This document shows positions 6,702-57,470 of a stretch of 64,000 nucleotides of DNA, in pieces; the stretch's first letter is position 1, and each line of letters opens with the position of its first letter. The notes beneath the pieces are model-generated. The model was not told where the DNA came from and ran no database searches. It saw nothing but the letters and a program-made list of their open reading frames with translations. Both the position numbers and the translations under genes were made by a program. This DNA comes from Blastocatellia bacterium (GTDB lineage: Bacteria > Acidobacteriota > Blastocatellia > RBC074), in assembly GCA_035560235.1 (NCBI GenBank), contig DATMAG010000049.1, positions 24,300 to 88,299 on the forward strand. Reading direction: 5' to 3'.

Positions 6702-6707
6702 AGAATG

Positions 6708-6962
6708 GAACGCGGGTGAATCCGATGCGACTGAGCAATACAGATTCTGATCAGTCTTCATCCGTTGCATCAGTTTCATCGGCGTTCCATTTTCTGAAAA
6801 GCAATGGAACGCGGATTGAACGGATGCAACAGATAAACACAGATCAGCCCTGATCCGTCATATCAGTTTCATCCGTATTCCATTACCTTTCAGAAAATAG
6901 AACGCGGATGAAACTGATGATACAGATAAAAGACGGATCGGTGCTTATCCGTCGCATCCGTC
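6708..6962. repeat. three tandem palindromic units of about 85-90 bp (family A: AATGGAACGCG...CGCGTTCCATT)
   Basis: Each unit has terminal inverted repeats such as aatggaacgcgggtgaatccgatg ... catcagtttcatcggcgttccatt. Units start near 6712, 6803 and 6900. Related single copies lie at 37828-37912 and 54480-54605. Confidence 0.6.
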
Positions 6963-7001
6963 CAATCCGTGTTCCATTCAGCATTGATTGAGAGAGTCGC
7001 T

Positions 7002-19844: not shown

Positions 19845-19850
19845 AGGAAC

Positions 19851-19940
19851 AGTGGTCAGTGGTCAGTGGTCAGTGACTGGTGGCTGACGGTCAGCAGAAG
19901 GACCAGTGTCCTCCGATCACCAGCCACTGACCACTGACTG
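19851..19940. repeat. GGTCAGTG-repeat hairpin (family C) at the convergent rsmD/galE junction
   Basis: cagtggtcagtggtcagtggtcagtgactggtg ... caccagccactgaccactgactg form a long imperfect inverted repeat. A related element lies at 39525-39612. Confidence 0.5.
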
Positions 19941-31336: not shown

Positions 31337-31442
31337 AGTATTCACCATCAACCCGGCATCGCGGAGCGTCTGGAGTGCTGCGGCCTGGCGCAGCTTTGCA
31401 GAATCAAAGTGCAGACAATGTAATGAATCAGGTTTCTCTGAG

Positions 31443-31527
31443 AGACGGTGTTCGGAGTCCCAGCTTTAGCTGGCTGGCTCTCGATTCAGACCCGACCAGC
31501 TAAAGCTGGGACTCCGAACACCGTCTC
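31443..31527. repeat. family B palindromic element (GACGGTGTTCGGAGTCCCAGCTTTAGCTGG loop CCAGCTAAAGCTGGGACTCCGAACACCGTC)
   Basis: A perfect inverted repeat of about 32 bp with a roughly 22-nt loop. Further copies lie at 47264-47343 and 57386-57470. Confidence 0.65.
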
Positions 31528-31732
31528 TTCAGAAAGGAGATTTCAATCACTATCCCGCTCTGGCCTGCTACAATTCAGTCTCTGCAGGCAGCGGTATCGA
31601 ATGAATACCAAAGCTGCGCCAGGCCGCAGCACTCCAGACGCTCCGCGATTTCAGGACGTGCAGCATCAAACAACCAACATCCCGCGCGCCGGGCGGCATC
31701 AGGTGCGCGGCCTGATCCTTCAGAAAATACCC

Positions 31733-32584
31733 ATGCTCAAATCAAATGATCGTCGTGACTTTATGAAACTCAGCGCCGGAGCCGCCGTTTCAGCGATGCT
31801 TCCGGCAATGCTCAACGCCGCGCCCAGATGGAAAAACATTCCCATTGCCACGCAGGCGTGGTGCGTGCGCAAGCAGATGGCCGGAGACATTCCGGGCACG
31901 CTCGCCGCCGTTGCCGCGCTGGGTTATCAGGGCATCGAACTTGAAAATGCCTTTGGCAAATCGGGGACGGAATGGCGCGGCTGGCTGGATGCGAACAAAC
32001 TGCGGGCCTGCGGGTTTCATCATTCGTGGCAGGAACTGCAGGGCGACCGGCTCAGACAGTCCATCGAATTCAATCAGGCGATTGGCAACAAAAACCTGAT
32101 CATTCGCTCGCTGCCGCGCGAGGTTTACACTTCAAAAGACCTGCTGCTGAAAACCGCCGAAGCGGTCAATAAAATTTCAGACAGTCTGAAACCGCATGGA
32201 ATGCGCGTCGGCTATCACAACCACACGCTCGACTTCAATAAAATTGACGGCGAATACTGGTGGAACCTTTTTGCCGATCAGACGCATAAAAACGTCATCC
32301 TGCAATTCGACACCGGCAATGCTTCTGAAATGTCCGGCGTCACGGTCACCGACTTTCTGAAGCGCAACAAGGGCCGCACCGTTTCAATGCACGTCAAGCC
32401 GTTCTCGCATCAGAAGCCGGACGCCTTTCTCGGTGATGACGAACTGGACTGGAAGCAGATTATGACAATCTGCGAAACGACCGGCGGCATCGAGTGGTAC
32501 ATCATCGAATACGAGCGCGAGGCCGTCCCGCCGCTCGAAGCGCTGAAGGCCAATCTCGAAAGATTTCGCCGGATGCGGGCTTGA
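31733..32584 (+). CDS. xylose-isomerase-like TIM-barrel sugar phosphate isomerase/epimerase, Tat-exported
   Basis: The Tat motif is MLKSNDRRDFMKLSAGAAVSAMLPAMLNAAP. The AP-endonuclease-2/xylose-isomerase-like barrel includes ...LGYQGIELENAFG... and ...HGMRVGYHNHTLDF... The upstream part of the 31448 ORF comes from the family B repeat and is not coding. Confidence 0.7.
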   Translation: MLKSNDRRDFMKLSAGAAVSAMLPAMLNAAPRWKNIPIATQAWCVRKQMAGDIPGTLAAVAALGYQGIELENAFGKSGTEWRGWLDANKLRACGFHHSWQELQGDRLRQSIEFNQAIGNKNLIIRSLPREVYTSKDLLLKTAEAVNKISDSLKPHGMRVGYHNHTLDFNKIDGEYWWNLFADQTHKNVILQFDTGNASEMSGVTVTDFLKRNKGRTVSMHVKPFSHQKPDAFLGDDELDWKQIMTICETTGGIEWYIIEYEREAVPPLEALKANLERFRRMRA

Positions 32585-35521: not shown

Positions 35522-36874
35522 TCAGGCTTTCGGATATTCCCACGACCCGCGATATCTGCGGCTCAGATGCCTGTTGGCTTCAGCGTCACCGATGACTGTT
35601 TCCCTGGCGCCGTCCCATTCAATGCTGCGGCCCAGTTTGTAAGAGAGCATGCCAAGCAGGCTGACGTTCGTTGAGTAATGAATCTGTTCGATGTCGCTGA
35701 CGGGTTTGCGCCGGTTTCTGATCGCGTCAAGAAAGTCGGCCCACAGCTCTTTGATGTTCTGGTCATCAGGTTTGTGCAGTTGCGCGTCCTGATGAATGAT
35801 CTGACCTTTCGGATCGGTCGGATAAAACGTCCAGCCGTCGAGCCAGCCCATATGAAACGTGCCGTTCGTGCCGTAAAAGTAACATCCGACCGGCTGGCGC
35901 GGATCGCTCTTTTCGGCGTTGTTGGCGGCGAACTGCCGATGCTCCCAGCTCACCGTGAACTGCTCGAACTCAAAGACCGCGACCTGATGATCGGGCGCGT
36001 CGGTGGTCTGCGCTTCCTTTGTATTGACTGCAGGCCCCTTGATCGGGCGGCCTCCGGTCGAAAAGATTTTGCGCGGATACTTCTCACCCGTGATCCACAG
36101 AATCTGATCAATCCAGTGAATGCCCCAGTCGCCAAGCGTGCCGTTGGCATAATCCAGAAAGTTGCGGAAGCCTTTCGGGTGAATCTTTTTGTTGAATGGC
36201 CGCAGCGGCGCAGGCCCGCACCACATCTCCCAGTCCAGACCTTTCGGCGGCTCGGTGTTTTTCTCAGGCTGCTCCGGCCCGCCGCCGTAATGCACAAAAG
36301 CGCGCACCATTCCGATTTTGCCTAGTTTGCCTGACTGAATGAATTCGCGGCCCGAAAGGTTGTGCGGTGAAATGCGGCGATGCGTTCCGACCTGCACGAC
36401 CTTGCCGGTTGCGCGCGCCGCGTTGACCATCGCGCGGCCTTCCTTCACGGTGTGACCGATGGGCTTTTCAACGTAAACGTGCGCGCCCGCATTGACCGCC
36501 GCAATCATCATCAGCGAATGCCAGTGATCGGGCGTGCCGACGATGACGATTTCAGGTTTCTCTTTCTGCAACAGCTCGCGGTAATCGCGGTAAAGCTTCG
36601 GCTGGTCGCCCGACAGTTTCTGCACTTCAGCAACAGCGGGGTTCAACTGATTCTCGTCCACGTCGCACATCGCCACGACCTTTGACTGACCGGCGGCCAT
36701 CGCTTCGCGCAGGATGTTCATGCCCCACCAGCCTGTGCCAATCAGCGCCGTGCGATATTTCGTCGGCTGTGCGTTGAGAATCGGAATGCCGTAATCCAGC
36801 CCGGCAGCGAGTGATGAGACGGCAGTGGTTTTGATGAAGTTTCGACGATTCACGGCTGGCCTCCTTCTTGTCAT
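35522..36874 (-). CDS. Gfo/Idh/MocA-family NAD(P)-dependent oxidoreductase, Tat-exported
   Basis: The Tat signal is MTRRRPAVNRRNFIKTTAVSSLAAG. The Rossmann region reads ...TALIGTGWWGMNIL...VVAMCDVDENQL... and the family core reads ...KPEIVIVGTPDHWH.... Confidence 0.8.
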   Translation of the reverse strand: MTRRRPAVNRRNFIKTTAVSSLAAGLDYGIPILNAQPTKYRTALIGTGWWGMNILREAMAAGQSKVVAMCDVDENQLNPAVAEVQKLSGDQPKLYRDYRELLQKEKPEIVIVGTPDHWHSLMMIAAVNAGAHVYVEKPIGHTVKEGRAMVNAARATGKVVQVGTHRRISPHNLSGREFIQSGKLGKIGMVRAFVHYGGGPEQPEKNTEPPKGLDWEMWCGPAPLRPFNKKIHPKGFRNFLDYANGTLGDWGIHWIDQILWITGEKYPRKIFSTGGRPIKGPAVNTKEAQTTDAPDHQVAVFEFEQFTVSWEHRQFAANNAEKSDPRQPVGCYFYGTNGTFHMGWLDGWTFYPTDPKGQIIHQDAQLHKPDDQNIKELWADFLDAIRNRRKPVSDIEQIHYSTNVSLLGMLSYKLGRSIEWDGARETVIGDAEANRHLSRRYRGSWEYPKA

Positions 36875-36998
36875 AAGAAATGGACAGAATTGACAGGATG
36901 AGCAGGATAAATCGTCAGATCAGACTTCTGCTCTGCTCAGATTCTGTCGCTCCTGTAAATCCTGTCCGAATGTTTTCTGCGTTGATTCTGACTACTGG

Positions 36999-37808
36999 TT
37001 ACATCGGGAACATCTCACTGAGTTCACCCGGCGCAGGCTGACGCCCGTACTGGCACAGTTCAAAGGCTTCGGCGTATCTGATTGCCCGGCCCTGTTCTTC
37101 GCCGTAACGCGCCACGAGCAGCGCGCGGTATTTGTCGGCAATTTCAACGTCGCGATCTCTGAGCCAGTCGTGAATGAACTGTCGGCGCGCTTCATCGCCT
37201 TCAGGCACGCCGGGCAGATAACGACCGAGCCACGAATCACGATCAGCAAACTGCGACGGCATCGAGCAGATGCACTCAGACTTTTTCGCTGACACGTCAT
37301 CAATCCCGACCACGATGGCCGGATCGAAGGGATACGGCTTCTGAAACTGATCGGAGTAATAAAGAATGACCGGATTGCGCGGACACGGCGGCGTGTGCGT
37401 TTCAAAAAACGGCGCAGCCACCAGCACCGCCGCGTCTTCGACCAGCACGCCCGTGTAGCGATGATCGGGGTGATAATCACAAGGCCGCGGACACAGCACA
37501 ATATCGGCCTGCCAGGCGCGAATGAGCCGCGCAATCGTCCGGCGGTTTTCGAGCGTCGGCAGCAGTTCGCCATCGTGAATGTCAAGCACTTCGGTTTCGA
37601 TGCCCAGGATTTCAGCGCACCGCTCGACTTCAGCCCTGCGCCTGAGCGCGAGCGGCCCGCCTGCCATCGCAAAATGTCCGACATCGCCGTTGGTCGTGGC
37701 GACAAACTTGACCTTGTGTCCGGCAGCGGCCCACTTCGCCGCGACTCCGGCAGCCTTGAGTTCACAGTCATCAGGATGCGCGCCAAAAGCAATGATCTTT
37801 AGTTTCAC
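36999..37808 (-). CDS. PIG-L/LmbE-family N-acetylglucosaminyl deacetylase
   Basis: MKLKIIAFGAHPDDCELKAAGVAAKWAAAGHKVKFVATTNGDVGH... contains the PIG-L signature AHPDDxE and the His triad. The protein is 269 aa. Confidence 0.75.
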   Translation of the reverse strand: MKLKIIAFGAHPDDCELKAAGVAAKWAAAGHKVKFVATTNGDVGHFAMAGGPLALRRRAEVERCAEILGIETEVLDIHDGELLPTLENRRTIARLIRAWQADIVLCPRPCDYHPDHRYTGVLVEDAAVLVAAPFFETHTPPCPRNPVILYYSDQFQKPYPFDPAIVVGIDDVSAKKSECICSMPSQFADRDSWLGRYLPGVPEGDEARRQFIHDWLRDRDVEIADKYRALLVARYGEEQGRAIRYAEAFELCQYGRQPAPGELSEMFPM

Positions 37809-37827
37809 AGGTTCAGTGATAAGCGGT

Positions 37828-37912
37828 CGAATGGAACTCGGATGAAACGGATGTGACAGATCATCACAGATTATCCGTTTGAATCTGCGGCATCCGTCTC
37901 ATCCGTGTTCAA
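37828..37912. repeat. family A palindromic element (aatggaactcggatgaaacggatg ... catccgtctcatccgtgttcaat), single copy
   Basis: Shares its termini and internal ggatgaaac / catccg motifs with the 6708-6962 array. Confidence 0.55.
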
Positions 37913-37925
37913 TCTTCTGATTCGA

Positions 37926-39515
37926 TTACAGATTGTCTTTTGTCAGCACATTATCCACCAGCCGCCAGATGCCTCTGGTGTTTTCGTTGCGCAATTCAAC
38001 GGGCAACGCTTCCGGCGGGAAGTTCTGATACGACACCGGACGCGCGAAGCGTTTGATGGCATACGTGCCGACCGAAGTCGAACGCGCATCGGTCGTCGCC
38101 GGATACGGGCCGCCGTGCGTCATTGCGGGACAGACTTCAACGCCGGTCGGAAAGCCGTTGAAAACGAGCCGCCCGGCTTTGGTTTCGAGAATTGAAACCA
38201 GCCCGGCGTACTGCTGCAAATCTTCGGGCGTGGCGTGAATCGTTGCAGTCAGTGAACCGTGCAGGCTGCGGGCGATTTCTTCAAGCTGCTCGCGCGTGCC
38301 GCAACTGACGACGAGCGTTGACGGGCCGAAGACTTCTTCACTGAGTTGCGGACTGGCCAGAAACGTGGCGGCATCGGTCGCAAAGACTGTGGCCTGCGAT
38401 TGTGTCTTTGCAGGTTCGGGCGCAGTTTGTGCGCGCTGTGTCGCTACGCCTGAAGTTTCAGCAAAGCGGCTGACGCCTGATTCATAACTTTGCAGAATGC
38501 CCGGATGCAGCATCGTGGTCGGCGGCACTGCGGCAAACAGATTGTTGAGCCTGCCGATCAGTTGATCCATTCCGGCATCGGCCATTCCAAAGACCAGGCC
38601 GGGACAGGTGCAGAACTGACCTGCGCCGAGCGTGACTGAATTTTTCAGCCCTTCGGCAAAGGCTTCGCCACGCGACTGCAACGCGCCAGGCAGCACGAAG
38701 ACAGGATTGACGCTGCCCATTTCAGCGTAAACCGGAATCGGTTCAGGCCGCGCCGCCGCCGCATCGAACAAAGCCCGCCCGCCGCGCAGCGAACCGGTAA
38801 AGCCGACCGCCCTGATGGCCGGATGTTTGACGAGCGTCTGCCCGACTTCGACGCTGCCGCCGTGAACCATTGAAAAAACGCCTTCGGGCATGCCGGTTTC
38901 ATTCGCCGCTTTAATGACAGCGCGGGCGACCATTTCAGAAGTGCCGGGATGCGCGGGATGCGCCTTGACAACGACCGGGCATCCGGCAGCGAGCGCCGAA
39001 GCGGTGTCGCCGCCCGCGACTGAATAGGCAAAGGGAAAATTGCTCGCGCCAAAGACCGCGACCGGGCCAAGCGCAATCAGCATGCGCCGCAGATCGGGTT
39101 TCGGCAGCGGCTGACGATCAGCAATGGCGCGGTCAATCGTCGCTTCGACCCACGAACCTTCGCGGATTTCCGCCGCAAACAGACGCAACTGATTCATCGT
39201 GCGCCCGCGTTCGCCAGTCAGCCGGTCATAAGGCAGGCCGGTTTCAGCCTGGGCGCGATGAATCAGTTCATCGCCCTGCGCGAGCAGTTCATCCGCGATA
39301 GATTCAAGAAACGCGGCGCGCTCGTCGCTGCTCAGGCGACGGTAAGCATCGAACGCCTGAGCGGCGAGTTCGCAGGCGCGATTGATTTCGTCAGTCGTCG
39401 CTTCGTGAAAGACGGGGTCAAGTGACCGGCCAGCCGCCGGATCAAAAGCCTGAAAGGTTTGAGAACCTGATGATGAAGTTGAATTGCCGATGATCTGTTT
39501 GCCGTGTAGTTCCAT
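37926..39515 (-). CDS. NAD(P)-dependent aldehyde dehydrogenase, alpha-ketoglutarate-semialdehyde dehydrogenase-like
   Basis: The ALDH superfamily core reads ...GFTGSLRGGRALF..., ...PIPVYAEMGSVNPVFVL... and ...VTLGAGQFCTCPG... with a catalytic Cys context. The N-terminal region resembles KGSADH / 2,5-dioxovalerate dehydrogenases. Confidence 0.75.
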   Translation of the reverse strand: MELHGKQIIGNSTSSSGSQTFQAFDPAAGRSLDPVFHEATTDEINRACELAAQAFDAYRRLSSDERAAFLESIADELLAQGDELIHRAQAETGLPYDRLTGERGRTMNQLRLFAAEIREGSWVEATIDRAIADRQPLPKPDLRRMLIALGPVAVFGASNFPFAYSVAGGDTASALAAGCPVVVKAHPAHPGTSEMVARAVIKAANETGMPEGVFSMVHGGSVEVGQTLVKHPAIRAVGFTGSLRGGRALFDAAAARPEPIPVYAEMGSVNPVFVLPGALQSRGEAFAEGLKNSVTLGAGQFCTCPGLVFGMADAGMDQLIGRLNNLFAAVPPTTMLHPGILQSYESGVSRFAETSGVATQRAQTAPEPAKTQSQATVFATDAATFLASPQLSEEVFGPSTLVVSCGTREQLEEIARSLHGSLTATIHATPEDLQQYAGLVSILETKAGRLVFNGFPTGVEVCPAMTHGGPYPATTDARSTSVGTYAIKRFARPVSYQNFPPEALPVELRNENTRGIWRLVDNVLTKDNL

Positions 39516-39524
39516 AGTGATTGT

Positions 39525-39612
39525 CAGTTGTCCGTGGTCAGTTGTCAGTTGTTATCTGTGATGATGAAAAGTCTGAAAACAAATTACAACCGACCACCGA
39601 CAACTGACAACA
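39525..39612. repeat. family C hairpin (gtcagttgtccgtggtcagttgtcagttg ... caaccgaccaccgacaactgacaac) between the ALDH and inositol oxygenase genes
   Basis: A long inverted repeat is read directly. Confidence 0.5.
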
Positions 39613-39613
39613 A

Positions 39614-40459
39614 CTACCAGGCAATCTTTGGCGGGAAAAATTCAGCCACCAGTTCCTGATAGAACGGCCTCAATTCCTCAACATTCGGCTGCACAACTGA
39701 CTTGGTGTACAAGTCGTAAGGATTGAAGGCGCGTACCCATTTGAGCATTTCCCTGTCCTGTTCGTTCATCAGGTGCGTGTATTCGTTCTCGCGGTGAACC
39801 ACGTAAGCCGAATGATAGCGAATCATCCACAACGCTTCCTGCGGCAGATAATTTCTGACGACGTGATAAAGATATTCATCGTGGCCCCAGGTGAAATGCA
39901 CTTGATCAAGACCGCAGCCCGGTTCGTAAATCCCGCAGGGCGTGCTGAGCAGTGGATTCCGGCTGTCGGGATTGTCAGCAAAAAATTCTGAATAAACGAT
40001 CCTGTCTGAAAACGCGCAGCCGACCGGGTTGGTGTCACCGACCACGGCCCACTGCGGCTCGCCAAAGAGGCACAGCACCTTGCCGAGATCGTGAATCAGC
40101 CCGGTGAGAATGAACCAGCGCGGGTGTCCGTCGCGGCGAATGGCTTCGGCGGTCTGCAGCGCGTGCACGATCTGCGGCAGCGCCAGATCAGGGTCGCTGT
40201 CATCAACGACCTGATCGAGTTGTTCCATCGCCTCCCAGACGCTCATCTCAGCTTTTCGGAGCGGCGTGTACTCGGCTTTTTTTGCCAGCACGAAATCGAG
40301 CGTCTGCTGTGTGTGATGCTGTCGGTAAAGTTCACGGACACAGGCGCGGGCTTCGGCGGCGTAATCGCGGAACTGAGCTGGCTGTTTATCTTCATCAATG
40401 AGTGAGTGGGGAATGGGCGGGGCAACGGCAAACAAATCAGAACTGAGCGGATGTGACAT
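39614..40459 (-). CDS. myo-inositol oxygenase (MIOX, HD-domain di-iron oxygenase family)
   Basis: ...[29 protein letters not shown]..., ...[13 protein letters not shown]... and ...[43 protein letters not shown]...FFPPKIAW. The sequence is collinear with eukaryotic MIOX, including the C-terminal KIxW. I place the start at MSHPLSS (40459), within the longer 40654 ORF. Confidence 0.8.
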
Positions 40460-40599
40460 TAACCTGCATTGCTCCTTTGTGCGTGATCTCGGTTGAAAGT
40501 TCCGGCCTGACCGAATCAGCTGCTGGTCAAACCAGGCGGCGCGGCCATCATAATGCCGCCTTCTCAAAAAGTGAACAGTCGTCTGAAGAGCTGAGTCTG

Positions 40600-40688
40600 G
40601 CTGGAGCGCAGGCAGGCTGCCTGCCAGACTTCGATCAGGGGCTTCTTCCCGCAAGCCATGCAGGCAGGCTGCCTGCGCTCCAGCCAGA
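40600..40688. promoter_or_regulatory. 29-bp inverted repeat (ctggctggagcgcaggcaggctgcctgcc ... ggcaggcaggctgcctgcgctccagccag) in the divergent region between the inositol oxygenase and TonB-dependent receptor genes
   Basis: Read directly. The arms are separated by about 30 nt, and each arm is itself near-palindromic. Confidence 0.3.
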
Positions 40689-41025
40689 CAATGAAGTGCC
40701 CCTGGGCCGGATCTTGTTCATCCGGCCTGGTCGTGGTACTGTGCTGCCATCTTAAATACGGTAAGGTCATAACAAAGCACCAGCATTATCTTTCAGGAGA
40801 ATCAGCAGAGTCGTCATTCGAACTTTTCTGTTTTACACGCAGTTCCCCGACAGGGCCTGCTCTGCGCTGTAGCAGTTCACAGGATGAAAGGTAACGGCAG
40901 ACTTTTCCCCTGCCTTCAGTTCAGACTGTGAGCAGATAACCGCTCTTCAGTGCAGCCAGGACGCCGGTTTCGCTACCACAATCAACACTCATTCACCCCC
41001 TTCTCATTCAGGAAAGGAGTTACCC

Positions 41026-44000
41026 ATGTTGCGTCCACGTTACCCCCTCGCAGTTCTGGTCATCATCACGCTGCTGGCCTCGGCTGCCCTGTCACAAACC
41101 TTTCGTGGTGGCATCTCCGGCAGCATTACCGATCCGTCCGGCGCAGCTGTCCCCGGCGCATCCGTACAGCTTGTGCATGAAGGCACGGGGCTGACCCGCA
41201 ATCAGGAAACCACCAGCTCCGGCGATTTCACCTTTGCCGATCTGCCGCCCGGCTTCTACACGATCACCATTACCAAGGCCGGGTTCCAGACCCGGAAGAT
41301 GGAGAAGGTTGAAGTCGCCGTCGGCAAGGTCACCAGTCTGCCGGTCACGCTCGCCGTCGGACAAACGAGCGAAACCATCGAGGTGCAGGCTGCAGCCGCC
41401 ACGCTTGAAACTTCCAATTCCACGCTCAATGCTGTCGTCAATCAGCGCGCGGTGCAGGAGATTCCGCTCAACGGGCGCGACTTTCGCACGCTGCTTTACC
41501 TGACGCCGGGCTATAACCAGAGCGGTTCGATGAATGGCAATCGCGGCAATCAGAACAACTGGCAGATTGACGGCACCGACAACAATGATTTCTGGCACAA
41601 CGGCGAAGCCGTCAACCAGGGCAGCATTTCAGGCATCGCGGGCGTGCTGCTGCCGATTGAAGCGATTGATCAGTTCAATCAGCAGTCAGCCGGCGGCGGC
41701 GATTTCGGGCGCAATCCTGGTTCGCAGGTCAACGTCGCCCTGAAATCAGGCACGAACGAATTTCACGGCTCGGCCTACTACTTCAATCGCAACGAAGCCT
41801 TCGCGCTGCAATCGCCGTTCGTTCCGGTCGGAACTCCCGACAAGCTGCGCAACGAACAGGGCGGTTTTTCGCTCGGCGGCCCGATCATCAAAAACCGCCT
41901 CTTCTTTTTCCTCACCTATGAAAAGCAGAACTATGTGATTGCTGACCCGGTGCGCGGAACTGTCCCGTCCAACGCCTGGATTGATGTGGCCAAAGGCATC
42001 CTGCAAAAGTACAACGTGCCGGTGAATCCGGTCATGCTGGCCACTTTTCAGAATCTGTGGCCGTCACGCGGGGCTTCAGCTCCGGCAACAAAACTGAACT
42101 TCAATTCCGGCGATGATGACACCGGCCACAGCAACAACGGTGTCATCAAGCTCGATTACAACCTCAATTCAAAGCATACGCTCTCGGCGCGCGCGTTTCT
42201 CGGAACAGGTGAAGCGGCGCAGTTTGCCGGATCAGTTTACAAGGAATATTACCAGGTGGTGCCGAGTCGTCAGCATAACTTTGCCGTGATCTGGAACTCG
42301 ACCTGGACGCCGCGTCTTGTCAACCAGTTGCTGGCCGGAGTGAACTACTTCAACCAGACCTTTGACGATGCGGTTCACGCCGCCAATCCGGTTTCGTGGG
42401 GACTCAACACCGGCGTCACCAACCCGTCGAATTTCGGCGCGCCAACAATCAGCATCACCGGCTTCGACAACGGCATCGTCGGCGCGACTCCGCGTCTCGG
42501 ACGAATTGATGTGACCGGCCATCTGACCGACAACCTCTCGTACAACTTCGGCAGCCACGCGCTGAAACTCGGCGGTGAATTCCGGCGGGCGAAGCTCGAT
42601 GTGTTCTACTACCGCGAAGCGCGCGGGTCTTTCAGCTTCGACGGCAACCAGGGACCGTGGGCCAATGATCCGACGCTTGATCCGAAAGTTGATCCGCTCG
42701 GCGTTCAGAAAAAGGCCATCGCCGATTTTGTGGCGGGCATCATCGCCGCTGGCAGCGCCTCAATCGCCGTCGGTGATCCGCAGCGCGATTACTTCGTGAA
42801 TTCAGTTGATGGCTGGGCGCAGGACAACTGGCAGTACACGCCGCGTCTGAATATCAACTACGGCTTCCGCTACACCTACAACGGAAGGCTGCACGCGACG
42901 GGCAGCAAACCGATTGCGATCTTCAATCCGAAGTCATCAACCGGCCTCTCCATCGTAGGCAAGGACATTGAATCGCTCTATCCGGCTGACTACAACAACA
43001 TCGCGCCGCGTCTCGGTTTTGCCTATTCGCCAACGCGTGGCGGGAAGATGGTGATTCGCGGTCATTACGGCGTCTATTACGACATCGTCAATGGCAACCT
43101 GTTCATTGACAACCGCGCCGGCAGCGATTCCGGTCGCGGTGTCTCGCGCCAGCCGACCGGCCCGGCCCCGGTCTTCAGCGCCAGCAATCCCGGCACGGGA
43201 CCCAATGGCTCCGGCCCCTACACGATTCAGCAGGGAGTGCCCATCTTCGGTGGCGCGACGCCGCAGCCGCCGTTCGCAGTCTACACAGTGAATCAGAACC
43301 TGCGCTCGCCCTACGTGCAGAATTTCGGCGTGGATGTGCAGTATCAGGTGGCGAGAAACACGCTGCTGACGGTCGGTTATGTCGGCAACCAGGCGCGCAA
43401 GCTGGTGTACACGCACAACATCAATCAGATCAGGCCGAGCGTTGATCCGGCTGCCTCCTCGCGTCGCCCGTTCTTCACGCAGTTCCCGCAATTCCGCGGG
43501 ATCACTGAGATCGAGACGGCAGCCAATTCGAGCTACAACGCGCTTCAGCTTTCGCTGCGCACCTCAAGCTGGCGCAACCTCAGCGCCCAGTTCTCCTACA
43601 CGCTCGGACACGCGGAGGATGAAGTTTCAGCGCCGCGCAACGCCCGACCGACCGACAATTACAACCGCCGGTTCGACCGGGGCAATGCGGCCTTTGATTA
43701 CCGGCACGTCTTTTCAGGTTACGTGCTTTATGACGTGCCGCAGCTCGGCCACGCGCTGCCGCTGCTGACCAGAGGCTGGCAGCTCAACGCGTTCATCACG
43801 GCAGATTCCGGCACGCCGTTCACGGTCTTTGCCACCGGCGACTTCAGCCACACGCGCAACGGCGCTGACCGGGCGAATCAGACCGGCGATCCGTTCAGCG
43901 GAATCACGCAGCCGGCGACAGTCAATGGCCGCTACGTCAATGGCATTCGCTATTTCAACGGCTCGGCCTTTGTCAATCCGGCCCCCGGGACTTACGGGAC

Positions 44001-44259
44001 AACCAAAAGAAACCAGTACTACGGGCCGGGGTTCGCTTCAGTTGACCTTTCAGTCTTCAAGAACTTCAGGTTCAGGGAGCGATACACCCTGCAGTTCCGC
44101 TCGGAGATCTTCAATATCTTCAACCGGCTGAATATGGGCAATCCTGACGGATCAGTCGGCGGCGGGCTGATCGGCGGCACGCGTCACGGCGGCGATGCGC
44201 CTGGCATCGGTTACGGCGAACCGCGCAACATTCAGTTCGTCGTGAAATTCCTCTGGTAA
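41026..44259 (+). CDS. TonB-dependent receptor-like outer-membrane protein with N-terminal carboxypeptidase-regulatory-like domain
   Basis: The signal peptide is followed by ...TFRGGISGSITDPSGAAVPGASVQLVHEGTGLTRNQETTSSGDFTFADLPPGFYTITITKAGFQ... (a CarbopepD_reg-like domain). A plug-like region follows (...LNGRDFRTLLYLTPG...) and a long beta-barrel ends in an aromatic C-terminus. The protein is 1077 aa. Confidence 0.75.
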   Translation: MLRPRYPLAVLVIITLLASAALSQTFRGGISGSITDPSGAAVPGASVQLVHEGTGLTRNQETTSSGDFTFADLPPGFYTITITKAGFQTRKMEKVEVAVGKVTSLPVTLAVGQTSETIEVQAAAATLETSNSTLNAVVNQRAVQEIPLNGRDFRTLLYLTPGYNQSGSMNGNRGNQNNWQIDGTDNNDFWHNGEAVNQGSISGIAGVLLPIEAIDQFNQQSAGGGDFGRNPGSQVNVALKSGTNEFHGSAYYFNRNEAFALQSPFVPVGTPDKLRNEQGGFSLGGPIIKNRLFFFLTYEKQNYVIADPVRGTVPSNAWIDVAKGILQKYNVPVNPVMLATFQNLWPSRGASAPATKLNFNSGDDDTGHSNNGVIKLDYNLNSKHTLSARAFLGTGEAAQFAGSVYKEYYQVVPSRQHNFAVIWNSTWTPRLVNQLLAGVNYFNQTFDDAVHAANPVSWGLNTGVTNPSNFGAPTISITGFDNGIVGATPRLGRIDVTGHLTDNLSYNFGSHALKLGGEFRRAKLDVFYYREARGSFSFDGNQGPWANDPTLDPKVDPLGVQKKAIADFVAGIIAAGSASIAVGDPQRDYFVNSVDGWAQDNWQYTPRLNINYGFRYTYNGRLHATGSKPIAIFNPKSSTGLSIVGKDIESLYPADYNNIAPRLGFAYSPTRGGKMVIRGHYGVYYDIVNGNLFIDNRAGSDSGRGVSRQPTGPAPVFSASNPGTGPNGSGPYTIQQGVPIFGGATPQPPFAVYTVNQNLRSPYVQNFGVDVQYQVARNTLLTVGYVGNQARKLVYTHNINQIRPSVDPAASSRRPFFTQFPQFRGITEIETAANSSYNALQLSLRTSSWRNLSAQFSYTLGHAEDEVSAPRNARPTDNYNRRFDRGNAAFDYRHVFSGYVLYDVPQLGHALPLLTRGWQLNAFITADSGTPFTVFATGDFSHTRNGADRANQTGDPFSGITQPATVNGRYVNGIRYFNGSAFVNPAPGTYGTTKRNQYYGPGFASVDLSVFKNFRFRERYTLQFRSEIFNIFNRLNMGNPDGSVGGGLIGGTRHGGDAPGIGYGEPRNIQFVVKFLW

Positions 44260-44263
44260 AAAA

Positions 44264-44341
44264 ACAGACAGGATTCACAGGATCAGCTGCCGCGACAACA
44301 TTGTCCCGGCGCTGATTCTGTCAGTCCCGTGAATCCTGTCT
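44264..44341. terminator. hairpin (acagacaggattcacagg ... cccgtgaatcctgtct) at the convergent junction of the TonB-dependent receptor and patatin genes
   Basis: A 16-bp inverted repeat is preceded by AAAAA. The right arm overlaps the last codons of the patatin gene. Confidence 0.45.
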
Positions 44342-45142
44342 TACTGCTGAAAACATCTCCTCAGTTCTGCGCCTGCCTGAATCAATCAGTTCCTGCAAAT
44401 CGCGCTGCCGATAAATCACCGTGCCTTTGCCGAGCGTGTCCGGCGTAAGCATCACGACCGGTATCTGAGGATGCTGCTGTCGCAGCTTTTCGACTCTGGC
44501 CGCGTTTTCAGCGCGCGCTTTCAGGTGACTGGAAACATCAACCACCAGCACCTGCTGCGGCGCAAAGGGCAGCGCAAATAATTTGTCAGCCGGTAAACAA
44601 TTCACCACGCCACCATCCACCAGCCGCAGCACACGGCCCGCCATTTCACACCGCCGCGACGGAAAAAAACCGGGAATCGCTGCCGACCCGCGCGCTGCAT
44701 CTTCAAGCGGAAAGTCAGAGCCGGGATAGTGAAAGAAAATCTCTTCGCGCCGGTTGAGGTCGTAACAGACCACGCCGAGTCGCTCGACGCCGTGATGCAG
44801 CGTGCGCCCTGAAGCTTCAGACAAAAGCTGAATGTATTCAGGAATAATTCCGGCGCGATGAATGAAACGCCGCCTGATCGTTTCAGGCGCGCGCCGCAGC
44901 CACGCCCACGCCAGCAGGTGCCGCGAAGTCATATCCAGTCCGAGCCGCCGCAGGTCAGCTACGCTCAGCCCGACCGCCGCATAAAACGAGCCGATGATCG
45001 CGCCAGCGCTCGTGCCGACGATTTCAGAAATGCGAAAGCCGCGCTCACTGAGCGCCTCCAGCACGCCGACGTGAGCGAACCCGCGCACGCCTCCCGCGCC
45101 GAGCACCAGACTGAGCGGTTTGTCACTGCTGAGTTGAAGCAA
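44321..45142 (-). CDS. patatin-like phospholipase
   Basis: The oxyanion motif is in LVLGAGGVRGFAHVGVLEAL and the nucleophile elbow GTSAG is in EIVGTSAGAIIG. A DGG/DGA catalytic Asp region follows (LVDGGVVN). Confidence 0.8.
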   Translation of the reverse strand: MLQLSSDKPLSLVLGAGGVRGFAHVGVLEALSERGFRISEIVGTSAGAIIGSFYAAVGLSVADLRRLGLDMTSRHLLAWAWLRRAPETIRRRFIHRAGIIPEYIQLLSEASGRTLHHGVERLGVVCYDLNRREEIFFHYPGSDFPLEDAARGSAAIPGFFPSRRCEMAGRVLRLVDGGVVNCLPADKLFALPFAPQQVLVVDVSSHLKARAENAARVEKLRQQHPQIPVVMLTPDTLGKGTVIYRQRDLQELIDSGRRRTEEMFSAVRQDSRD

Positions 45143-45177: not shown

Positions 45178-45813
45178 CTAAATATTCGGCTCCCAGATTT
45201 CACTCAGTTCGAGCGTAAAGCCCGGCAGTTCCGGGTCACCTGAAATCTGTTGTGCGTTCTCGACGACTTCGACTTCAGCGCCGGGGCGATAAACATAGAC
45301 GCGCCTGTTTTCGGGATCAATCAGCCAGCCAAGCTGCGCGCCGCTCGCAATGTATTCCTGCATCTTTGCCTGCAAATCGTTCAGATCATCCGTCGGTGAA
45401 AGCAGTTCGATCACGAAGTCAGGGCACAGCGGCAGAAACTTTCGCTTCTGTTCCTGCGTCAGTTGCGCCAGCCGTTCGCGCCTGACCCACGCGGCATCAG
45501 GCGAACGATCCGCCCCGCCCGGCAACCTGAACCCGGTCGAAGAATCGGTCGAAACGCCTGCCTTGTTATCTTTCGACCAGTTGCGAAGCTGTGCCGTAAT
45601 CTCAGCGTTACGATTGCCTGTTTCCCATCCGGTTGGTGGCATAACGATGATGTCTCCTTCAGCCGTGCGTTCGAAGCGCAGATCGCGGTTGAGCTGGCAG
45701 AGTTCAAAGAACTGCTCGTCGCTCATCTCAATCACCGGGCGCAGCCGAATGGTCAGCGGCGTTTCGCGCACTGCAATTCTGCGTTCAGGCGGATCAATGA
45801 CAGCATGACTCAT
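45178..45813 (-). CDS. Uma2-family (DUF820) restriction-endonuclease-fold protein
   Basis: ...MSDEQFFELCQLNRDLRFERTAEGDIIVMPPTG... and ...PDFVIELLSPTDD... These are the PD-(D/E)xK-like motifs typical of Uma2. Confidence 0.75.
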   Translation of the reverse strand: MSHAVIDPPERRIAVRETPLTIRLRPVIEMSDEQFFELCQLNRDLRFERTAEGDIIVMPPTGWETGNRNAEITAQLRNWSKDNKAGVSTDSSTGFRLPGGADRSPDAAWVRRERLAQLTQEQKRKFLPLCPDFVIELLSPTDDLNDLQAKMQEYIASGAQLGWLIDPENRRVYVYRPGAEVEVVENAQQISGDPELPGFTLELSEIWEPNI

Positions 45814-45848: not shown

Positions 45849-47237
45849 CTATCGCAGATAGCCCAGGTATTCAGGACTGCCTTCAACCAGCGCCGTCACA
45901 AGCTCGCGGGCAGGCTCCCATTCACCAACGAGCGGATAGGCAAGCAGCGCCTGGCGCGCCAGGGCAGCTGATTTTTCAATGGCAGCGCGAATCGTCAGGC
46001 GTTCGTATTCCTTCACCGCCTGCACCAGCCCGCGCACCTTTGCGGGCAGTTCACCGACCGCCAGGGCCTGCGGGCCGTGACGATCAACCAGGCACGGCAC
46101 TTCGACAACATCATCAGCTTCAAGCTCAGTGATCGCGCCGCGATTGCTCACGTTCAGCACGATACGCGCAGGCTGATCGCTCACGAGCGCCTTCATCACA
46201 TCGAGCGCGATGCGATGATAACCGGTCGCGGCGGCAAACGGGTCTTCGGTCTGCTCGCTGTCTTCGTGCAAAGCTGAACCGGCTTCGGCTTCGAGTTTGA
46301 GATATGAACCCGAACGGCGGCGCAGGTAGTTGCGATAAATCGTCAGCGCTTCAGCGTGACGTTCAGCATTGACCGCTTCACGAAGCAGATCAAAAAGACT
46401 GGCATTCAGGCTTTCAATCTCCTCGCCGCGACTCGCTCCGGCTGCGCGCTGATTGGCGAGGGCGCGCTGCTGACAGTAATAAAAAAACAGATACTCGCTC
46501 GGAATCATTCCGAGGCCGCGAATCATTTCAGGGTCGAACAGTTCAGCGTGATAAAGACTGCGCAGCGCCGCATCATCATTGAGCAGCCGTTCAGTCTCAT
46601 CACGCCCGCGCACGAGCACGCGCCGCACCCAGCCAAGATGATTCAGGCCGAAGTAATCACAGCGCACATCCGCGAGCGGTTCAGACAACGCTGCGGCAAT
46701 ACGCAGAAACATTTCGCTCGGCGTGTCGCAGATGCCGATGCTGCGCAGCCGCGTGTGCTGCGCCATCGCCTGCGCCACGAGTCCCGCCGGATTCGTGAAG
46801 CTGATAAACCACGCCTCGGGCGCGTGCTGTTCAATCACGCGGGCGTGCGCAAGCGCAACCGGAATCGTCCGCAACGCCTTTGCCAGTCCGCCGAGTCCGG
46901 TAGTCTCCTGCCCGGCAATGCCGTGTTCGATGGCAAGGCGTTCATCGCGCGCACGCGCCGCAATGCCGCCGACGCGAATGCTGTGCAGAATGAACTGCGC
47001 GCCCGCTGTGGCGTCCTTGATTCTTTCAGGCGTGCTGATGATAAATTCAGCGCGCTGCTGTCTGATGACTTCCCTGCCGAGCGCAGCCATCAGCGCGACC
47101 CGCTCGCGGTCAATGTCATACAGCGCCAGTTCACGAATGCCGAGCGTCGCCGCCGCCTGCGCCAGCCCGTGAATCAGCAGCGGCGTGCGCACACCGCCAC
47201 CGCCGATGAGAGTTACTTTGCAGTTGTCATTCATCAC
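45849..47237 (-). CDS. glycoside hydrolase family 4 (NAD+/Mn2+-dependent alpha-glucosidase / 6-phospho-glucosidase family)
   Basis: [25 protein letters not shown]... is the Rossmann region. ...[15 protein letters not shown]... and ...GICDTP... are GH4-like. Confidence 0.7.
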
Positions 47238-47263
47238 TCAATAAAGGGAGCAATCAGCAGCCG

Positions 47264-47343
47264 GTGTCTGGAGTTCCGGCTTTAGCTGGTCGGTCTGAAT
47301 TTACAGCATCGCCAGCTAAAGCCGGAACTCCAGACACCGGCTC
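47264..47343. repeat. family B palindromic element (ccggtgtctggagttccggctttagctgg ... ccagctaaagccggaactccagacaccgg)
   Basis: A variant of the 31443-31527 element. It creates the spurious N-terminus of track ORF 47264..47707. Confidence 0.6.
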
Positions 47344-47370
47344 GCTGAAAGACGAGTTTCAATCAGCGCC

Positions 47371-48675
47371 TCAACTCAGCTTCATTTCATCGAGTCTGAG
47401 CAGCGTGTGCAGCAGCACGTTTGCGCCGCTGGTGATGTCTTCCGGTTTTGAAAATTCGCGTGGTGAATGGCTGATGCCGCCGACGCTGGGCACAAAGATC
47501 ATGCCGACCGGGCCGAGGCGGGCGACTTCCTGCGCGTCGTGGCCTGCGCCGCTGGGCATCGGCTTTGTCGTCAGGCCAAGCTGCCGGGCCGATTCAGCAA
47601 TCACGCGGCGAATGCGTTCATCGGTCGGCGCAGGCGCGGTGTCGTTGGTCTGCCTGAAATCGAATTTTGTCCCGGTGGCCTGTTCGATCTGTTTCACTTC
47701 GGCCTGAATCTTCGCAAACAGCATTCTGATTTTCGCGGCGTCGAGGTCGCGCAGTTCAAGGCTCGTCACGACTTTGCCTGGAATGACATTGTAGGCGCCC
47801 GGCTGCGCCTGAATCTTTCCAACCGTGCCGACCTGCCGACCCGGCATCGAAGTCACAGTGCGATTGACGGCTTCAATGAATTTCGCAGCAGCGAGCAATG
47901 CGTCGCGGCGCTGATTCATCGGCGTAGTCCCGGCGTGATTGGCGAAGCCTTCAATCGTCACGTCCCACCAGTTGATGCCGACAATGCCTTCGACCACGCC
48001 GATGTTGATTTTCTCTGCTTCGAGAATGCCGCCCTGTTCGATGTGCAGTTCAAGGTAAGCCGCAATGTCGCCGCGTTTGCGCACCGCGCCTGCGAGTTTG
48101 TCGGGATCGCCGCCGATGAACCTGATGCCGTCACGAATCGTTTTGCGACTGTTCGTAACCAGGTTCAGCTCCCTTTCAGTCAGCCCGGCGCTGATCGCAT
48201 GACTGCCGATGGTTCCGCCTTCCTCGTTCTGAAAGATGATGACTTCGAGCGGGTGACGCAGCGCGACGTTGTTTTCAGCGAGCGTCTGCGCAACTTCAAT
48301 CGCGCCCATCGAACCGACATCACCATCGTAATTGCCGCCTTCAGGCACCGAATCAATGTGCGAGCCGATGAGGAGCAGCGCAAGCGACGAATCGCGGCCC
48401 GCGCGACGACCGACGATGTTGCCTGCCGCATCAATGCTCACTTCAAGCTTCGCGGCGCGCATCAGGTTCATCGCATATTCGCGGCCTTTCAGGTCAGCAT
48501 CGCTGTAAGCCAGGCGACTGACGCCGCCCTGCGGGTTCCGGCCAAATTGCGACAGTTCTTTCAGGTGTTCATTGAACCGTTCGCCATTGACGCGCAGTTT
48601 CGGAAGCGATTGCGGCAGACCAGCGACAATGGCCGCAGACAAAAGGTGCAGATTGAATTCACGACGATTCATCAT
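47371..48675 (-). CDS. M20-family Zn-dependent amidohydrolase (allantoate amidohydrolase / N-carbamoyl-L-amino-acid hydrolase family), Tat-exported
   Basis: The Tat signal is MMNRREFNLHLLSAAIVAGLP. The metal-binding regions read ...LLIGSHIDSVPEGGNYDGDVG..., ...ELHIEQGG... and ...GAGHDAQ... Confidence 0.75.
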   Translation of the reverse strand: MMNRREFNLHLLSAAIVAGLPQSLPKLRVNGERFNEHLKELSQFGRNPQGGVSRLAYSDADLKGREYAMNLMRAAKLEVSIDAAGNIVGRRAGRDSSLALLLIGSHIDSVPEGGNYDGDVGSMGAIEVAQTLAENNVALRHPLEVIIFQNEEGGTIGSHAISAGLTERELNLVTNSRKTIRDGIRFIGGDPDKLAGAVRKRGDIAAYLELHIEQGGILEAEKINIGVVEGIVGINWWDVTIEGFANHAGTTPMNQRRDALLAAAKFIEAVNRTVTSMPGRQVGTVGKIQAQPGAYNVIPGKVVTSLELRDLDAAKIRMLFAKIQAEVKQIEQATGTKFDFRQTNDTAPAPTDERIRRVIAESARQLGLTTKPMPSGAGHDAQEVARLGPVGMIFVPSVGGISHSPREFSKPEDITSGANVLLHTLLRLDEMKLS

Positions 48676-48678
48676 TCC

Positions 48679-49602
48679 TCAGAGGTTCAACTCTTCCCGT
48701 GTCGGGAAGGGTGCGATGCCACCAAAGCCGCGCGTTGACAGCGCGCCGCAGATGTTACCAAGGCGCAGGCATTCATCCGGCATTCGATCATTCAGCCAGC
48801 CATAAATGAATCCGGCATCGAAACAATCGCCTGCGCCCGTTGTGTCCACCGGCTCAACGCTGACCGGCGGGCAAAAAATGATTTCACCGTTTGACAATAA
48901 TGCCGAACCGTTTGCGCCGAGTTTGAGCGCCACTGCGCGCAGACCCGCGTCAGCAAAGGCGCGCAGCATCTTTTCAGGTTCAGATTGTCCGGTCATCAGT
49001 TCGGCTTCGCGCTCGTTCGGCAGAAAGAGATCAACCCCGCGCAGCGCGTGCAGAGTTCGCGCACTGCTGAGCCAGTCAGGATGCCAGCCCACATCGAGCG
49101 AAACGGTGCAGCCCGCGTCGTGCAGCGTCGCGGCAATTTCAGCCAGCAGTTCAGACGCAACCCGAAAAGACAGGTGAACGTGCCGCGCCCTGTTCAGTTC
49201 ATTTCGCGCTGCGGCATCAGCGGCCAGCAGTTCAGGCAGCGCCTGATTCGATCCGGCATAAGTGAAAAACGCTCGGTCTTCAGCCGTCGAAACGCTCACG
49301 GTCAGCCCGGCACAATCGCCATCCGGGCGATGAATCAGTTCATCATCAACACCGCAGGCCTTCAGTCGTTCAACCAGCCAGTCACCATCGCGCCCGATCA
49401 CTGCCAGCAGCGCGACACGCACACCGAGTTTCGCCAGTCCGCAGGCTGTGATCGCCGCGCCGCCACCGGCTTCGCGGTGCAGCATCGTTGCAAACGATTC
49501 CTCGCCCGGCTGCGGCCAGCGCGGAAAACCGCTCATCACCAGATCGGTGAACACATCGCCTGCGGTAATGACATCCCAGTGCCGCTGAAACTTTCCGTTC
49601 AT
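48679..49602 (-). CDS. PfkB-family carbohydrate kinase (ribokinase-like)
   Basis: ...VITAGDVFTDLVM... is the substrate lid and ...DTTGAGDCFDAGFIYG... is the PfkB signature 2. Its start overlaps the permease stop (ATGA at 49599-49602). Confidence 0.8.
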   Translation of the reverse strand: MNGKFQRHWDVITAGDVFTDLVMSGFPRWPQPGEESFATMLHREAGGGAAITACGLAKLGVRVALLAVIGRDGDWLVERLKACGVDDELIHRPDGDCAGLTVSVSTAEDRAFFTYAGSNQALPELLAADAAARNELNRARHVHLSFRVASELLAEIAATLHDAGCTVSLDVGWHPDWLSSARTLHALRGVDLFLPNEREAELMTGQSEPEKMLRAFADAGLRAVALKLGANGSALLSNGEIIFCPPVSVEPVDTTGAGDCFDAGFIYGWLNDRMPDECLRLGNICGALSTRGFGGIAPFPTREELNL

Positions 49603-50993: not shown

Positions 50994-51004
50994 ACAAAAG
51001 TTTA

Positions 51005-51078
51005 TCCACGAGGCACACAAAGATTCACAAAGCAGAATCCGGCTGATCTTCGTGAATCTTCGTGTGCCTTCGTGGATG
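51005..51078. terminator. family D hairpin (atccacgaggcacacaaagattcac ... gtgaatcttcgtgtgccttcgtggat) between the permease start region and the 3-prime end of the TonB-dependent receptor gene
   Basis: A roughly 25-bp imperfect inverted repeat is read directly. It shares CACGAAGG/CCTTCGTG arms with 60026-60173. Confidence 0.45.
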
Positions 51079-51085
51079 AAGGGGA

Positions 51086-57385: not shown

Positions 57386-57470
57386 GAGACGGTGTTCGGA
57401 GTTCCAGCTTCAGCTGGCTGGTCTGAGTTCACAATTCAGCCAGCTGAAGCTGGAACTCCGAACACCGTCC
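57386..57470. repeat. family B palindromic element (gacggtgttcggagttccagcttcagctgg ... ccagctgaagctggaactccgaacaccgtc)
   Basis: Third copy of the family. It lies in the roughly 480-bp leader between the PIG-L gene and the Nramp gene. Confidence 0.6.

Follow-up and report, generated by a model that had tools for sequence, protein, structure and literature searches.

Myo-inositol oxygenase (MIOX) is described from animals and fungi (mouse and human; PDB 2HUO, 2IBN), and the nearest precedent for a bacterial MIOX gene cluster is that of Francisella, where the gene lies within a uxaC-uxuAB-kdgKA glucuronate cluster (PMC3479022). Here, we analyzed a MIOX locus of a soil Blastocatellia bacterium (Acidobacteriota; metagenome-assembled genome GCA_035560235.1, contig DATMAG010000049.1, positions 24,300 to 88,299), and this whole stretch of 64,000 nucleotides is called the window below. 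In the window, the genes for MIOX, an aldehyde dehydrogenase (ALDH), a PIG-L/LmbE-family deacetylase and a Gfo/Idh/MocA oxidoreductase all lie on the minus strand according to the open reading frame (ORF) listing, with 98, 117 and 124 bp between them. The other three genes also have described relatives. A 2025 review places the structures 3V4C and 1EYY in family cd07129, the 2-oxoglutarate semialdehyde dehydrogenases (KGSADHs), which is defined by a set of Asn, Glu, Cys and His residues (PMC12041015). The LmbE-like deacetylases, such as the Pyrococcus/Thermococcus diacetylchitobiose deacetylase, BcZBP of B. cereus and BshB, use a His-Asp-His zinc site and an Asp base (PMC4101496), and glycoside 3-dehydrogenases with the Gfo/Idh/MocA fold that are exported by twin-arginine translocation (Tat) are known from B. 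thetaiotaomicron (BT2158) and Alistipes (AL3) (PMC8121099; bioRxiv 10.1101/2024.03.25.586180). As in Francisella, a bacterial MIOX gene would here be physically linked to a glucuronate-consuming route. However, the Francisella cluster encodes an isomerase route with its full downstream pathway (PMC3479022), whereas in the window only the putative last enzyme of an oxidative route is adjacent and no uxa or uxu genes are present.

A sequence-only reading of this DNA had joined the four genes and a neighboring TonB-dependent receptor into one catabolic module for an inositol-containing glycoconjugate, for example N-acetylglucosamine (GlcNAc)-inositol. The gene assignments, the Tat signal, the receptor and an inverted repeat named in that reading are all real and correctly placed. 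We nevertheless consider it somewhat probable that two separate small units, MIOX-KGSADH and PIG-L-Gfo, happen to abut in this genome. The lineage-specific MIOX-KGSADH pair is the sole well-supported functional link at the locus, which is best described as a set of correctly annotated enzymes from known families; a GlcNAc-inositol catabolic pathway is not established from it. The window was scanned by a six-frame ORF listing with Pfam and NCBIfam profile scans, and the four genes and two of the gaps between them are as follows.

39614-40459, minus strand: MIOX (PF05153), 281 aa, cytoplasmic
39516-39613, minus strand: MIOX-ALDH gap with a hairpin of GTYGTCR heptads (inverted repeat and RNA fold)
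37926-39515, minus strand: NAD(P)+-dependent ALDH of the 2-oxoglutarate-semialdehyde dehydrogenase family cd07129, 529 aa (PF00171)
37809-37925, minus strand: ALDH-PIG-L gap with a REP-like hairpin (RNA fold)
36999-37808, minus strand: PIG-L/LmbE-family zinc de-N-acetylase, 269 aa, GTG start, no signal peptide (PF02585)
35522-36874, minus strand: Tat-exported, periplasmic Gfo/Idh/MocA oxidoreductase, 450 aa (PF01408, PF19051, PF22725)

An overlapping ORF (36992-37792) in a frame other than that of PIG-L has no family match and was discarded as spurious.

The MIOX and aldehyde dehydrogenase genes

The MIOX-ALDH pair was followed through 80 MIOX loci, each from a different GTDB species (loci of relatives carry labels such as L002), by tblastn with nine and later 21 window proteins, which gave the same result. 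The two genes are adjacent in four Blastocatellia genomes (the window, L002/L082-84, L087/88 and L173). Gene orders in three relatives, read from longer contigs, are given here with identities to the window proteins.

L082 (MIOX 88%, ALDH 94%, PIG-L 96%): patatin-MIOX-ALDH-[MNT/HEPN toxin-antitoxin]-PIG-L-Gfo
L087 (MIOX and ALDH 81%): patatin-MIOX-ALDH-ExbD-NosD-(opposite-strand HEAT/PPIase)-PIG-L-Gfo
L173 (ALDH 76%): PIG-L/NPCBM-Tat TIM barrel-MIOX-ALDH-MFS transporter, with the small PIG-L and the Tat-Gfo genes not nearby

The genes on the 5' side of the pair vary (receptor, patatin or Tat TIM barrel), as do those on the 3' side (PIG-L, a toxin-antitoxin cassette, ExbD or an MFS transporter). 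Retention of MIOX-ALDH despite these rearranged flanks fits a functional pair, and the two genes probably share a transcript or are at least selected together. Three of the records, L002, L006 and L007, are titled Heliobacteriaceae or Heliomicrobium; since the L002 proteins are 87-96% identical to those of the Blastocatellia window, these titles are probably taxonomic mislabels.

Judged from its sequence, the window MIOX is a genuine myo-inositol oxygenase. It matches PF05153 at 363 bits (cutoff 25) over profile positions 3-249 of 249, and it shares 53% identity over 237 residues with human MIOX (2IBN), with which the motifs HALQTAE, LIHDLGK, WGHDEY, RYHS and PYDLY align. The HD/diiron residues H99, H123, D124, K127, H193, H216 and D249 are invariant among 22 homologues; in mouse MIOX, the diiron ligands are H98, H123, D124, H194, H220 and D253, and Lys127 is the substrate lysine. 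The ATG start at 40459 is preceded by AAGGAG and agrees with a 100% identical database protein of 281 aa, which is recorded from a Blastocatellia MAG. From the human identity and the complete ligand set, we infer conversion of myo-inositol and O2 to D-glucuronate. The likeness to the animal and fungal enzymes thus extends over the whole catalytic domain and includes ligands, lysine and length, whereas the window enzyme is bacterial, has an ALDH partner and lies outside any glucuronate reductase or pentose-pathway context.

MIOX had been taken to be uncommon in bacteria, a view that is now outdated. Its homologues comprise at least 8000 database proteins at E<=1e-20, and the gene was confirmed in at least 598 GTDB species genomes among the 600 pattern matches listed. 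The best 80 species matches span at least nine phyla by their record titles, and the phyla that carry the gene include Acidobacteriota, Planctomycetota, Verrucomicrobiota, Gemmatimonadota, Armatimonadota, Hydrogenedentota, Myxococcota and others. In the 80 species loci, no ALDH, Udh or PIG-L family recurs as a neighbor of MIOX, and when the 111 immediate neighbors were examined with Pfam and ORF clustering, only GDPD_2 (5 loci) and an ABC permease (3 loci) were found repeatedly. The MIOX gene stands beside a secreted GDPD_2 phosphodiesterase gene in Pirellulales and in one Verrucomicrobiales metagenome-assembled genome (MAG) (L018, L022, L032, L033 and L054). In a Planctomycetaceae MAG and further Verrucomicrobiota (L015, L034, L040, L043 and L044), genes for ribose/inositol-type ABC transporters lie in its vicinity. 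These neighbors point to different lineage-specific inositol sources.

The ALDH matches PF00171 at 167 bits and, among solved structures, comes nearest to 3V4C (E = 1.7e-150) and 1EYY (E = 6e-143), and it keeps Asn159, Glu265, Cys302 and His467, which form the active-site set of cd07129 (PMC12041015). The earlier suggestion that it is KGSADH-like is therefore borne out at the level of the family, to which the KGSADH-II/III enzymes of Azospirillum also belong. Orthologues are named 2,5-dioxopentanoate dehydrogenase in database sources, and those at 64-71% identity lie directly 3' of an FAA_hydrolase (FAH) gene, which encodes an XylX-type hydratase, in L091, L174 and L175. This order is the xylX-xylA arrangement of the Caulobacter Weimberg pathway, and the match supports KGSADH function. 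No FAA_hydrolase partner was found in the window or in the MIOX-linked loci of L082, L087 and L173, and the identities form a continuous gradient from MIOX-linked to FAH-linked orthologues with no separate clade visible. The GucD-type KGSADH model NF042993, which represents a different ALDH lineage, scores 113.7 bits against a cutoff of 770. The family cd07129 also holds a fatty-aldehyde dehydrogenase (PMC12041015). Family membership and orthologue context suggest that the ALDH most likely oxidizes 2,5-dioxopentanoate to 2-oxoglutarate.

The deacetylase and the oxidoreductase

The PIG-L protein matches PF02585 at 91 bits (cutoff 28), and in the orthologue alignment H11, D13, D14, R57, H113 and H116 are invariant, of which His11, Asp14 and His116 form the zinc site and Asp13 is the general base (PMC4101496). 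Its presence had been read as a hint of a GlcNAc-inositol substrate, a suggestion that the comparisons do not sustain. Among PDB structures, the protein best matches the Pyrococcus diacetylchitobiose deacetylase, BcZBP and BshB, and MshB is missing from the matches at E<=0.01; the Mca model TIGR03446 gives 36 bits (cutoff 277). Because the protein is closest to the chitobiose and bacillithiol deacetylases and no affinity to MshB or Mca was detected, its family membership gives no pointer to inositol, and the enzyme differs in this respect from the inositol-specific MshB, Mca and PIG-L. It also differs from its nearest LmbE-like relatives, as it scores 108 bits with the BshB1 model TIGR04001 (cutoff 182.5) and belongs to an orthologue group of its own that is about 70% conserved across phyla. 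The members of this group come from Acidobacteriota, Bacteroidota, Gemmatimonadota and Rhodothermales. Most of them carry a signal peptide of 25-34 residues, which is missing from the Blastocatellia versions, including that of the window.

The Gfo protein begins with MTRRRPAVNRRNFIKTTAVSSLAAGL, which on direct reading is a twin-arginine signal (motif RRNFIK; stretch NRRNFIKTTAVSSLAAGL). Its best NCBIfam match is the glycoside 3-dehydrogenase BT_2158_fam model (151.7 bits, cutoff 750), the inositol 2-dehydrogenase IolG model reaches 76.3 bits (cutoff 355), and the best structures are 8TDF and 8TDH. The protein is accordingly predicted to be a distant relative of the Tat-exported glycoside 3-dehydrogenases, with which it shares the Tat signal, the fold and the best curated-model match. 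In contrast to the BT2158 and AL3 systems, the curated-model score falls far short (152 versus 750 bits), no DUF1080 hydrolase gene is adjacent, and the gene of the Tat TIM-barrel partner is found on the opposite strand at a distance of 3 kb.

In L082 and L087, 22-24 bp separate PIG-L from the Gfo gene directly 3' of it, so that the two genes are adjacent in three genomes including the window. PIG-L orthologues of 78-81% identity have no adjacent Gfo gene. Around 80 metagenomic PIG-L loci, the 76 immediate neighbors included three Gfo proteins, three 3-keto-disaccharide hydrolases, four class II aminoacyl-tRNA synthetases and one MIOX, and with counts this low the idea of a conserved PIG-L neighbor was rejected.

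One module or two units

The order MIOX-ALDH-PIG-L-Gfo was found in one of the 80 MIOX loci, that of the sister species L002 (MIOX 89%, PIG-L 96% identity), and conserved synteny of the four genes was rejected on this count. PIG-L-Gfo is cut off from ALDH by the MNT/HEPN cassette in L082, and by 3.5 kb with three genes, one of them on the opposite strand, in L087. The proposal of one catabolic module does not agree with this distribution, and the contact of PIG-L-Gfo with ALDH in the window appears incidental. If PIG-L-Gfo is a separate pair, the four-gene inositol-glycan pathway would be mostly an accident of gene order. The nucleotidyltransferase/HEPN toxin-antitoxin pair between ALDH and PIG-L occupies 9142-9829 in L082 and 4110-4800 in L002, and both genomes have Uma2-family endonuclease genes on the flanks of this region (45178-45813 in the window).

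In the cytoplasmic unit, MIOX would cleave myo-inositol with O2 to D-glucuronate, and the KGSADH-family ALDH would convert 2,5-dioxopentanoate to 2-oxoglutarate, the terminal step of oxidative uronate/aldarate, pentonate and hydroxyproline routes; a long hairpin between the two genes would be a conserved part of the unit. Uronate dehydrogenase, glucarate dehydratase and KdgD would have to lie elsewhere in the genome. The second unit would consist of the cytoplasmic PIG-L-type de-N-acetylase followed by the Tat-exported Gfo protein, which may act on a GlcNAc-type or glycoside substrate for which no tie to inositol emerged from this analysis. Coupling of MIOX with the KGSADH-type dehydrogenase, if real, would give Blastocatellia an O2-dependent path from myo-inositol to 2-oxoglutarate that bypasses the classical iol pathway. 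Inositol, its phosphates and its lipids are abundant in soil. Since MIOX is also widespread in Acidobacteriota, Planctomycetota, Verrucomicrobiota and Gemmatimonadota, such a route, if real, would be relevant to how soil phyla that are difficult to culture turn over carbon.

Several observations weigh against two abutting units with a coupled MIOX-ALDH pair. The co-orientation and the gaps of about 100-125 bp are compatible with read-through across all four genes, and no canonical terminator was found in the gaps, where the terminator and promoter scan was uninformative. MIOX and ALDH are adjacent in a single Blastocatellia sub-clade only, where the synteny may simply have been inherited, and ALDH orthologues of 74-76% identity stand alone in L176 and L177. 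The major ORFs of the 64-kb window include no Udh, GudD, KdgD or UxaC, which leaves the earlier pathway proposal without its supporting genes there; with no gene from glucuronate to 2,5-dioxopentanoate in this range, the oxidative route between the two enzymes is one that we infer. In addition, PIG-L and MIOX lie near each other more often than by chance (Poisson P of about 0.003 in a PIG-L-centered scan and about 0.016 in a MIOX-centered scan; chance expectation 0.08-0.19 per scan), which argues weakly for some link between the two units.

The same proximity speaks for the single module of the sequence-only reading, in which PIG-L would deacetylate the conjugate, a glycosidase or Gfo would free the inositol, MIOX would oxidize it and ALDH would complete the conversion to 2-oxoglutarate. 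Orthologues of the PIG-L group lie at most 3.5 kb from MIOX in three lineages (this clade; L103/L109, GC 70%; Isosphaeraceae L071). In the window, the four genes share one orientation, and the short gaps between them hold no canonical terminator. The synteny of MIOX with another PIG-L protein, the secreted PIG-L/NPCBM, in the window, L082 and L173 also fits, as does the direct contact of GH4 and PfkB genes with MIOX in other Blastocatellia. We still regard the module as unlikely. Its genes do not keep a conserved order, the PIG-L and MIOX genes point toward each other in L103 and L109 and are separated by an opposite-strand ORF in L071, and most PIG-L orthologues lie beside unrelated or housekeeping genes. 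Most orthologues outside Blastocatellia also carry a signal peptide while MIOX is cytoplasmic, no MshB/Mca affinity of PIG-L is detectable, and the sister genomes lack the receptor. The opposite extreme, with no functional links among the four genes, MIOX standing alone as it does in most bacteria and its adjacency to ALDH reflecting shared ancestry in a young clade, is fairly unlikely as well. It would agree with the lack of a recurrent MIOX neighbor in 80 species, with ALDH orthologues that elsewhere are alone or paired with FAA_hydrolase, and with the strong hairpins in the MIOX-ALDH and ALDH-PIG-L gaps, which could terminate transcription. However, MIOX-ALDH survives four flank arrangements with ALDH identities of 76-95%, and its biochemical logic is coherent, as the two enzymes would catalyze the first and last steps from inositol to 2-oxoglutarate. 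A very improbable variant makes the MIOX product itself, or an aldehyde related to it, the substrate of the ALDH, which would for instance oxidize open-chain D-glucuronate to D-glucarate and so replace uronate dehydrogenase. The immediate adjacency of the genes, the failure to find udh in the window and the lack of the FAA_hydrolase partner seen with more distant orthologues would suit it, whereas hexuronate use is known for no cd07129 member (PMC12041015), glucuronate is almost entirely cyclic in solution as a matter of general chemistry, and the continuous identities set no clade of MIOX-linked enzymes apart from the FAH-linked ones.

The three loci outside this clade differ in arrangement. 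The MIOX gene is 58 bp from the PIG-L orthologue in L103 (3314-4975) and 3.5 kb from it in L109 (462-5629), convergent in both, and the two genomes represent one GC-70% soil lineage. In the Isosphaeraceae MAG L071 (3454-6415), the two genes are 1.4 kb apart with an opposite-strand ORF between them. PIG-L and MIOX are never co-oriented as an operon in these three. A looser version of the inositol-glycoconjugate idea can also be framed, namely an undescribed, loosely clustered scavenging system of Blastocatellia for inositol glycosides or GlcN(Ac)-inositol head groups, with a shared regulon in place of an operon; we consider it quite unlikely. Its sources would be actinobacterial mycothiol or fungal or plant glycosylphosphatidylinositol (GPI) and glycosylinositol phosphorylceramide (GIPC) lipids. 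The secreted PIG-L/NPCBM deacetylase, the periplasmic Tat Gfo and TIM-barrel proteins, the cytoplasmic PIG-L, the GH4 glycosidase and the PfkB kinase might take part, and the freed myo-inositol would pass through MIOX and the KGSADH-type dehydrogenase to 2-oxoglutarate. The shifting yet recurrent nearness of these genes to MIOX would then reflect the shared regulon. No literature tying MIOX to PIG-L enzymes or mycothiol was found.

Flanking genes and inverted repeats

The remaining features near the four genes are listed here.

40595-40689, no strand assigned: REP-like inverted repeat of 37 nt 5' of MIOX (repeat search and fold)
41026-44259, plus strand: TonB-dependent receptor, CarboxypepD_reg/OMP_b-brl_4 (Pfam), divergent from MIOX
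44321-45142, minus strand: patatin-like phospholipase (PF01734)
45849-47237, minus strand: GH4 NAD+-dependent glycosidase (Pfam), loosely associated
54614-57292, minus strand: secreted PIG-L + NPCBM_assoc protein, 892 aa (Pfam; signal peptide)
31733-32584, plus strand: Tat-exported xylose-isomerase-like TIM-barrel protein (PF01261; DRRDFMK Tat motif), loosely associated

The receptor had been assigned to the module as its uptake component, a role that its distribution does not support. L082, L087 and L173 lack it at this position, and in sister genomes the patatin gene abuts MIOX where the window has the receptor, a genome-specific insertion between patatin and MIOX. TonB receptors flank MIOX in several other Acidobacteria, and the window receptor shares 24-28% identity with them. 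Since identities are 23-34% among the MIOX-flanking receptors and between them and the receptors of the window, except for the L010/L025 pair, they are not one orthologue group, and this candidate was rejected. The order patatin-MIOX-ALDH is seen in L002/L082 and L087, where patatin is the immediate co-oriented 5' neighbor of MIOX, and a 62% patatin orthologue follows the PIG-L orthologue in L086.

Beyond patatin, a minus-strand block (45849-54424) encodes a receptor, an APC permease, a PfkB kinase, an M20 carbamoylase-type amidohydrolase and the GH4 protein, and it is absent from the sister genome L082. The closest structures of GH4 are 6-phospho-beta-glucosidases. GH4 orthologues (64-74% identity) lie directly 3' of MIOX in L005 (4-bp overlap), L013 and L024, and a PfkB kinase gene lies 5' of MIOX in L024. 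As functional partners of MIOX, the genes of this block may be better candidates than PIG-L-Gfo. The PIG-L/NPCBM gene adjoins a divergent Nramp gene, and the synteny of Nramp and PIG-L/NPCBM with MIOX-ALDH is kept in L082 and L173, where the PIG-L/NPCBM protein is encoded two genes and one gene 5' of MIOX, respectively. The Tat TIM-barrel protein has a weak IolE-like match, and its 71% orthologue lies immediately 5' of MIOX in L173; the start is placed at 31733, as the listed ORF start at 31448 is too long by 95 codons. At 4080-8372, the window also contains a planctomycete-type PSCyt1/PSCyt2/PSD1 protein and a DUF1501 protein with several nested or tandem palindromes between them (6704-6952), and such a gene pair is also found near MIOX in L087.

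The inverted repeat 5' of MIOX, for which 29 bp had been given, has arms of 37 nt (40595-40631 and 40653-40689) that are 89% complementary, and its predicted RNA hairpin reaches -78 kcal/mol (z = -7.7). The repeat itself is real, and a role for it as a control site is not supported. Its core motif is seen once in the window and not at all in the loci of relatives. The window has no Rfam match, and the 64 kb contain at least 12 intergenic inverted repeats of at least 20 nt, this one included, which apparently belong to several sequence families. The repeat was rejected as an operator or riboswitch on these grounds and is best read as a REP-like element and not a dedicated operator.

The hairpin of the MIOX-ALDH gap is formed by an inverted repeat (39515-39556 and 39575-39616) with a fold of -52.6 kcal/mol (z = -8.8). 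A hairpin is also present in this gap in L082, L087 and L173 with different arm sequences (z of -3.9 to -8.8 over the four genomes), and an element of the same GTYGTCR heptad type is found at 19850-19938. The hairpin of the ALDH-PIG-L gap folds at -49.9 kcal/mol (z = -6.2); its sequence family also occurs 5' of PIG-L in L082 and, by inspection, is apparently repeated at 6704-6952. Long stable palindromes crowd the intergenic regions and are seen at 39515-39616, 19850-19938, 37809-37925, 6704-6952, 31441-31528, 47259-47342 and 57388-57469. By inspection, the palindromes apparently comprise at least three sequence families, namely the GTYGTCR heptad, 'AATGGAACRCGG…' and 'GACGGTGTTCGGAGTYCCAGCTT' hairpins, with folds that reach -78 kcal/mol.

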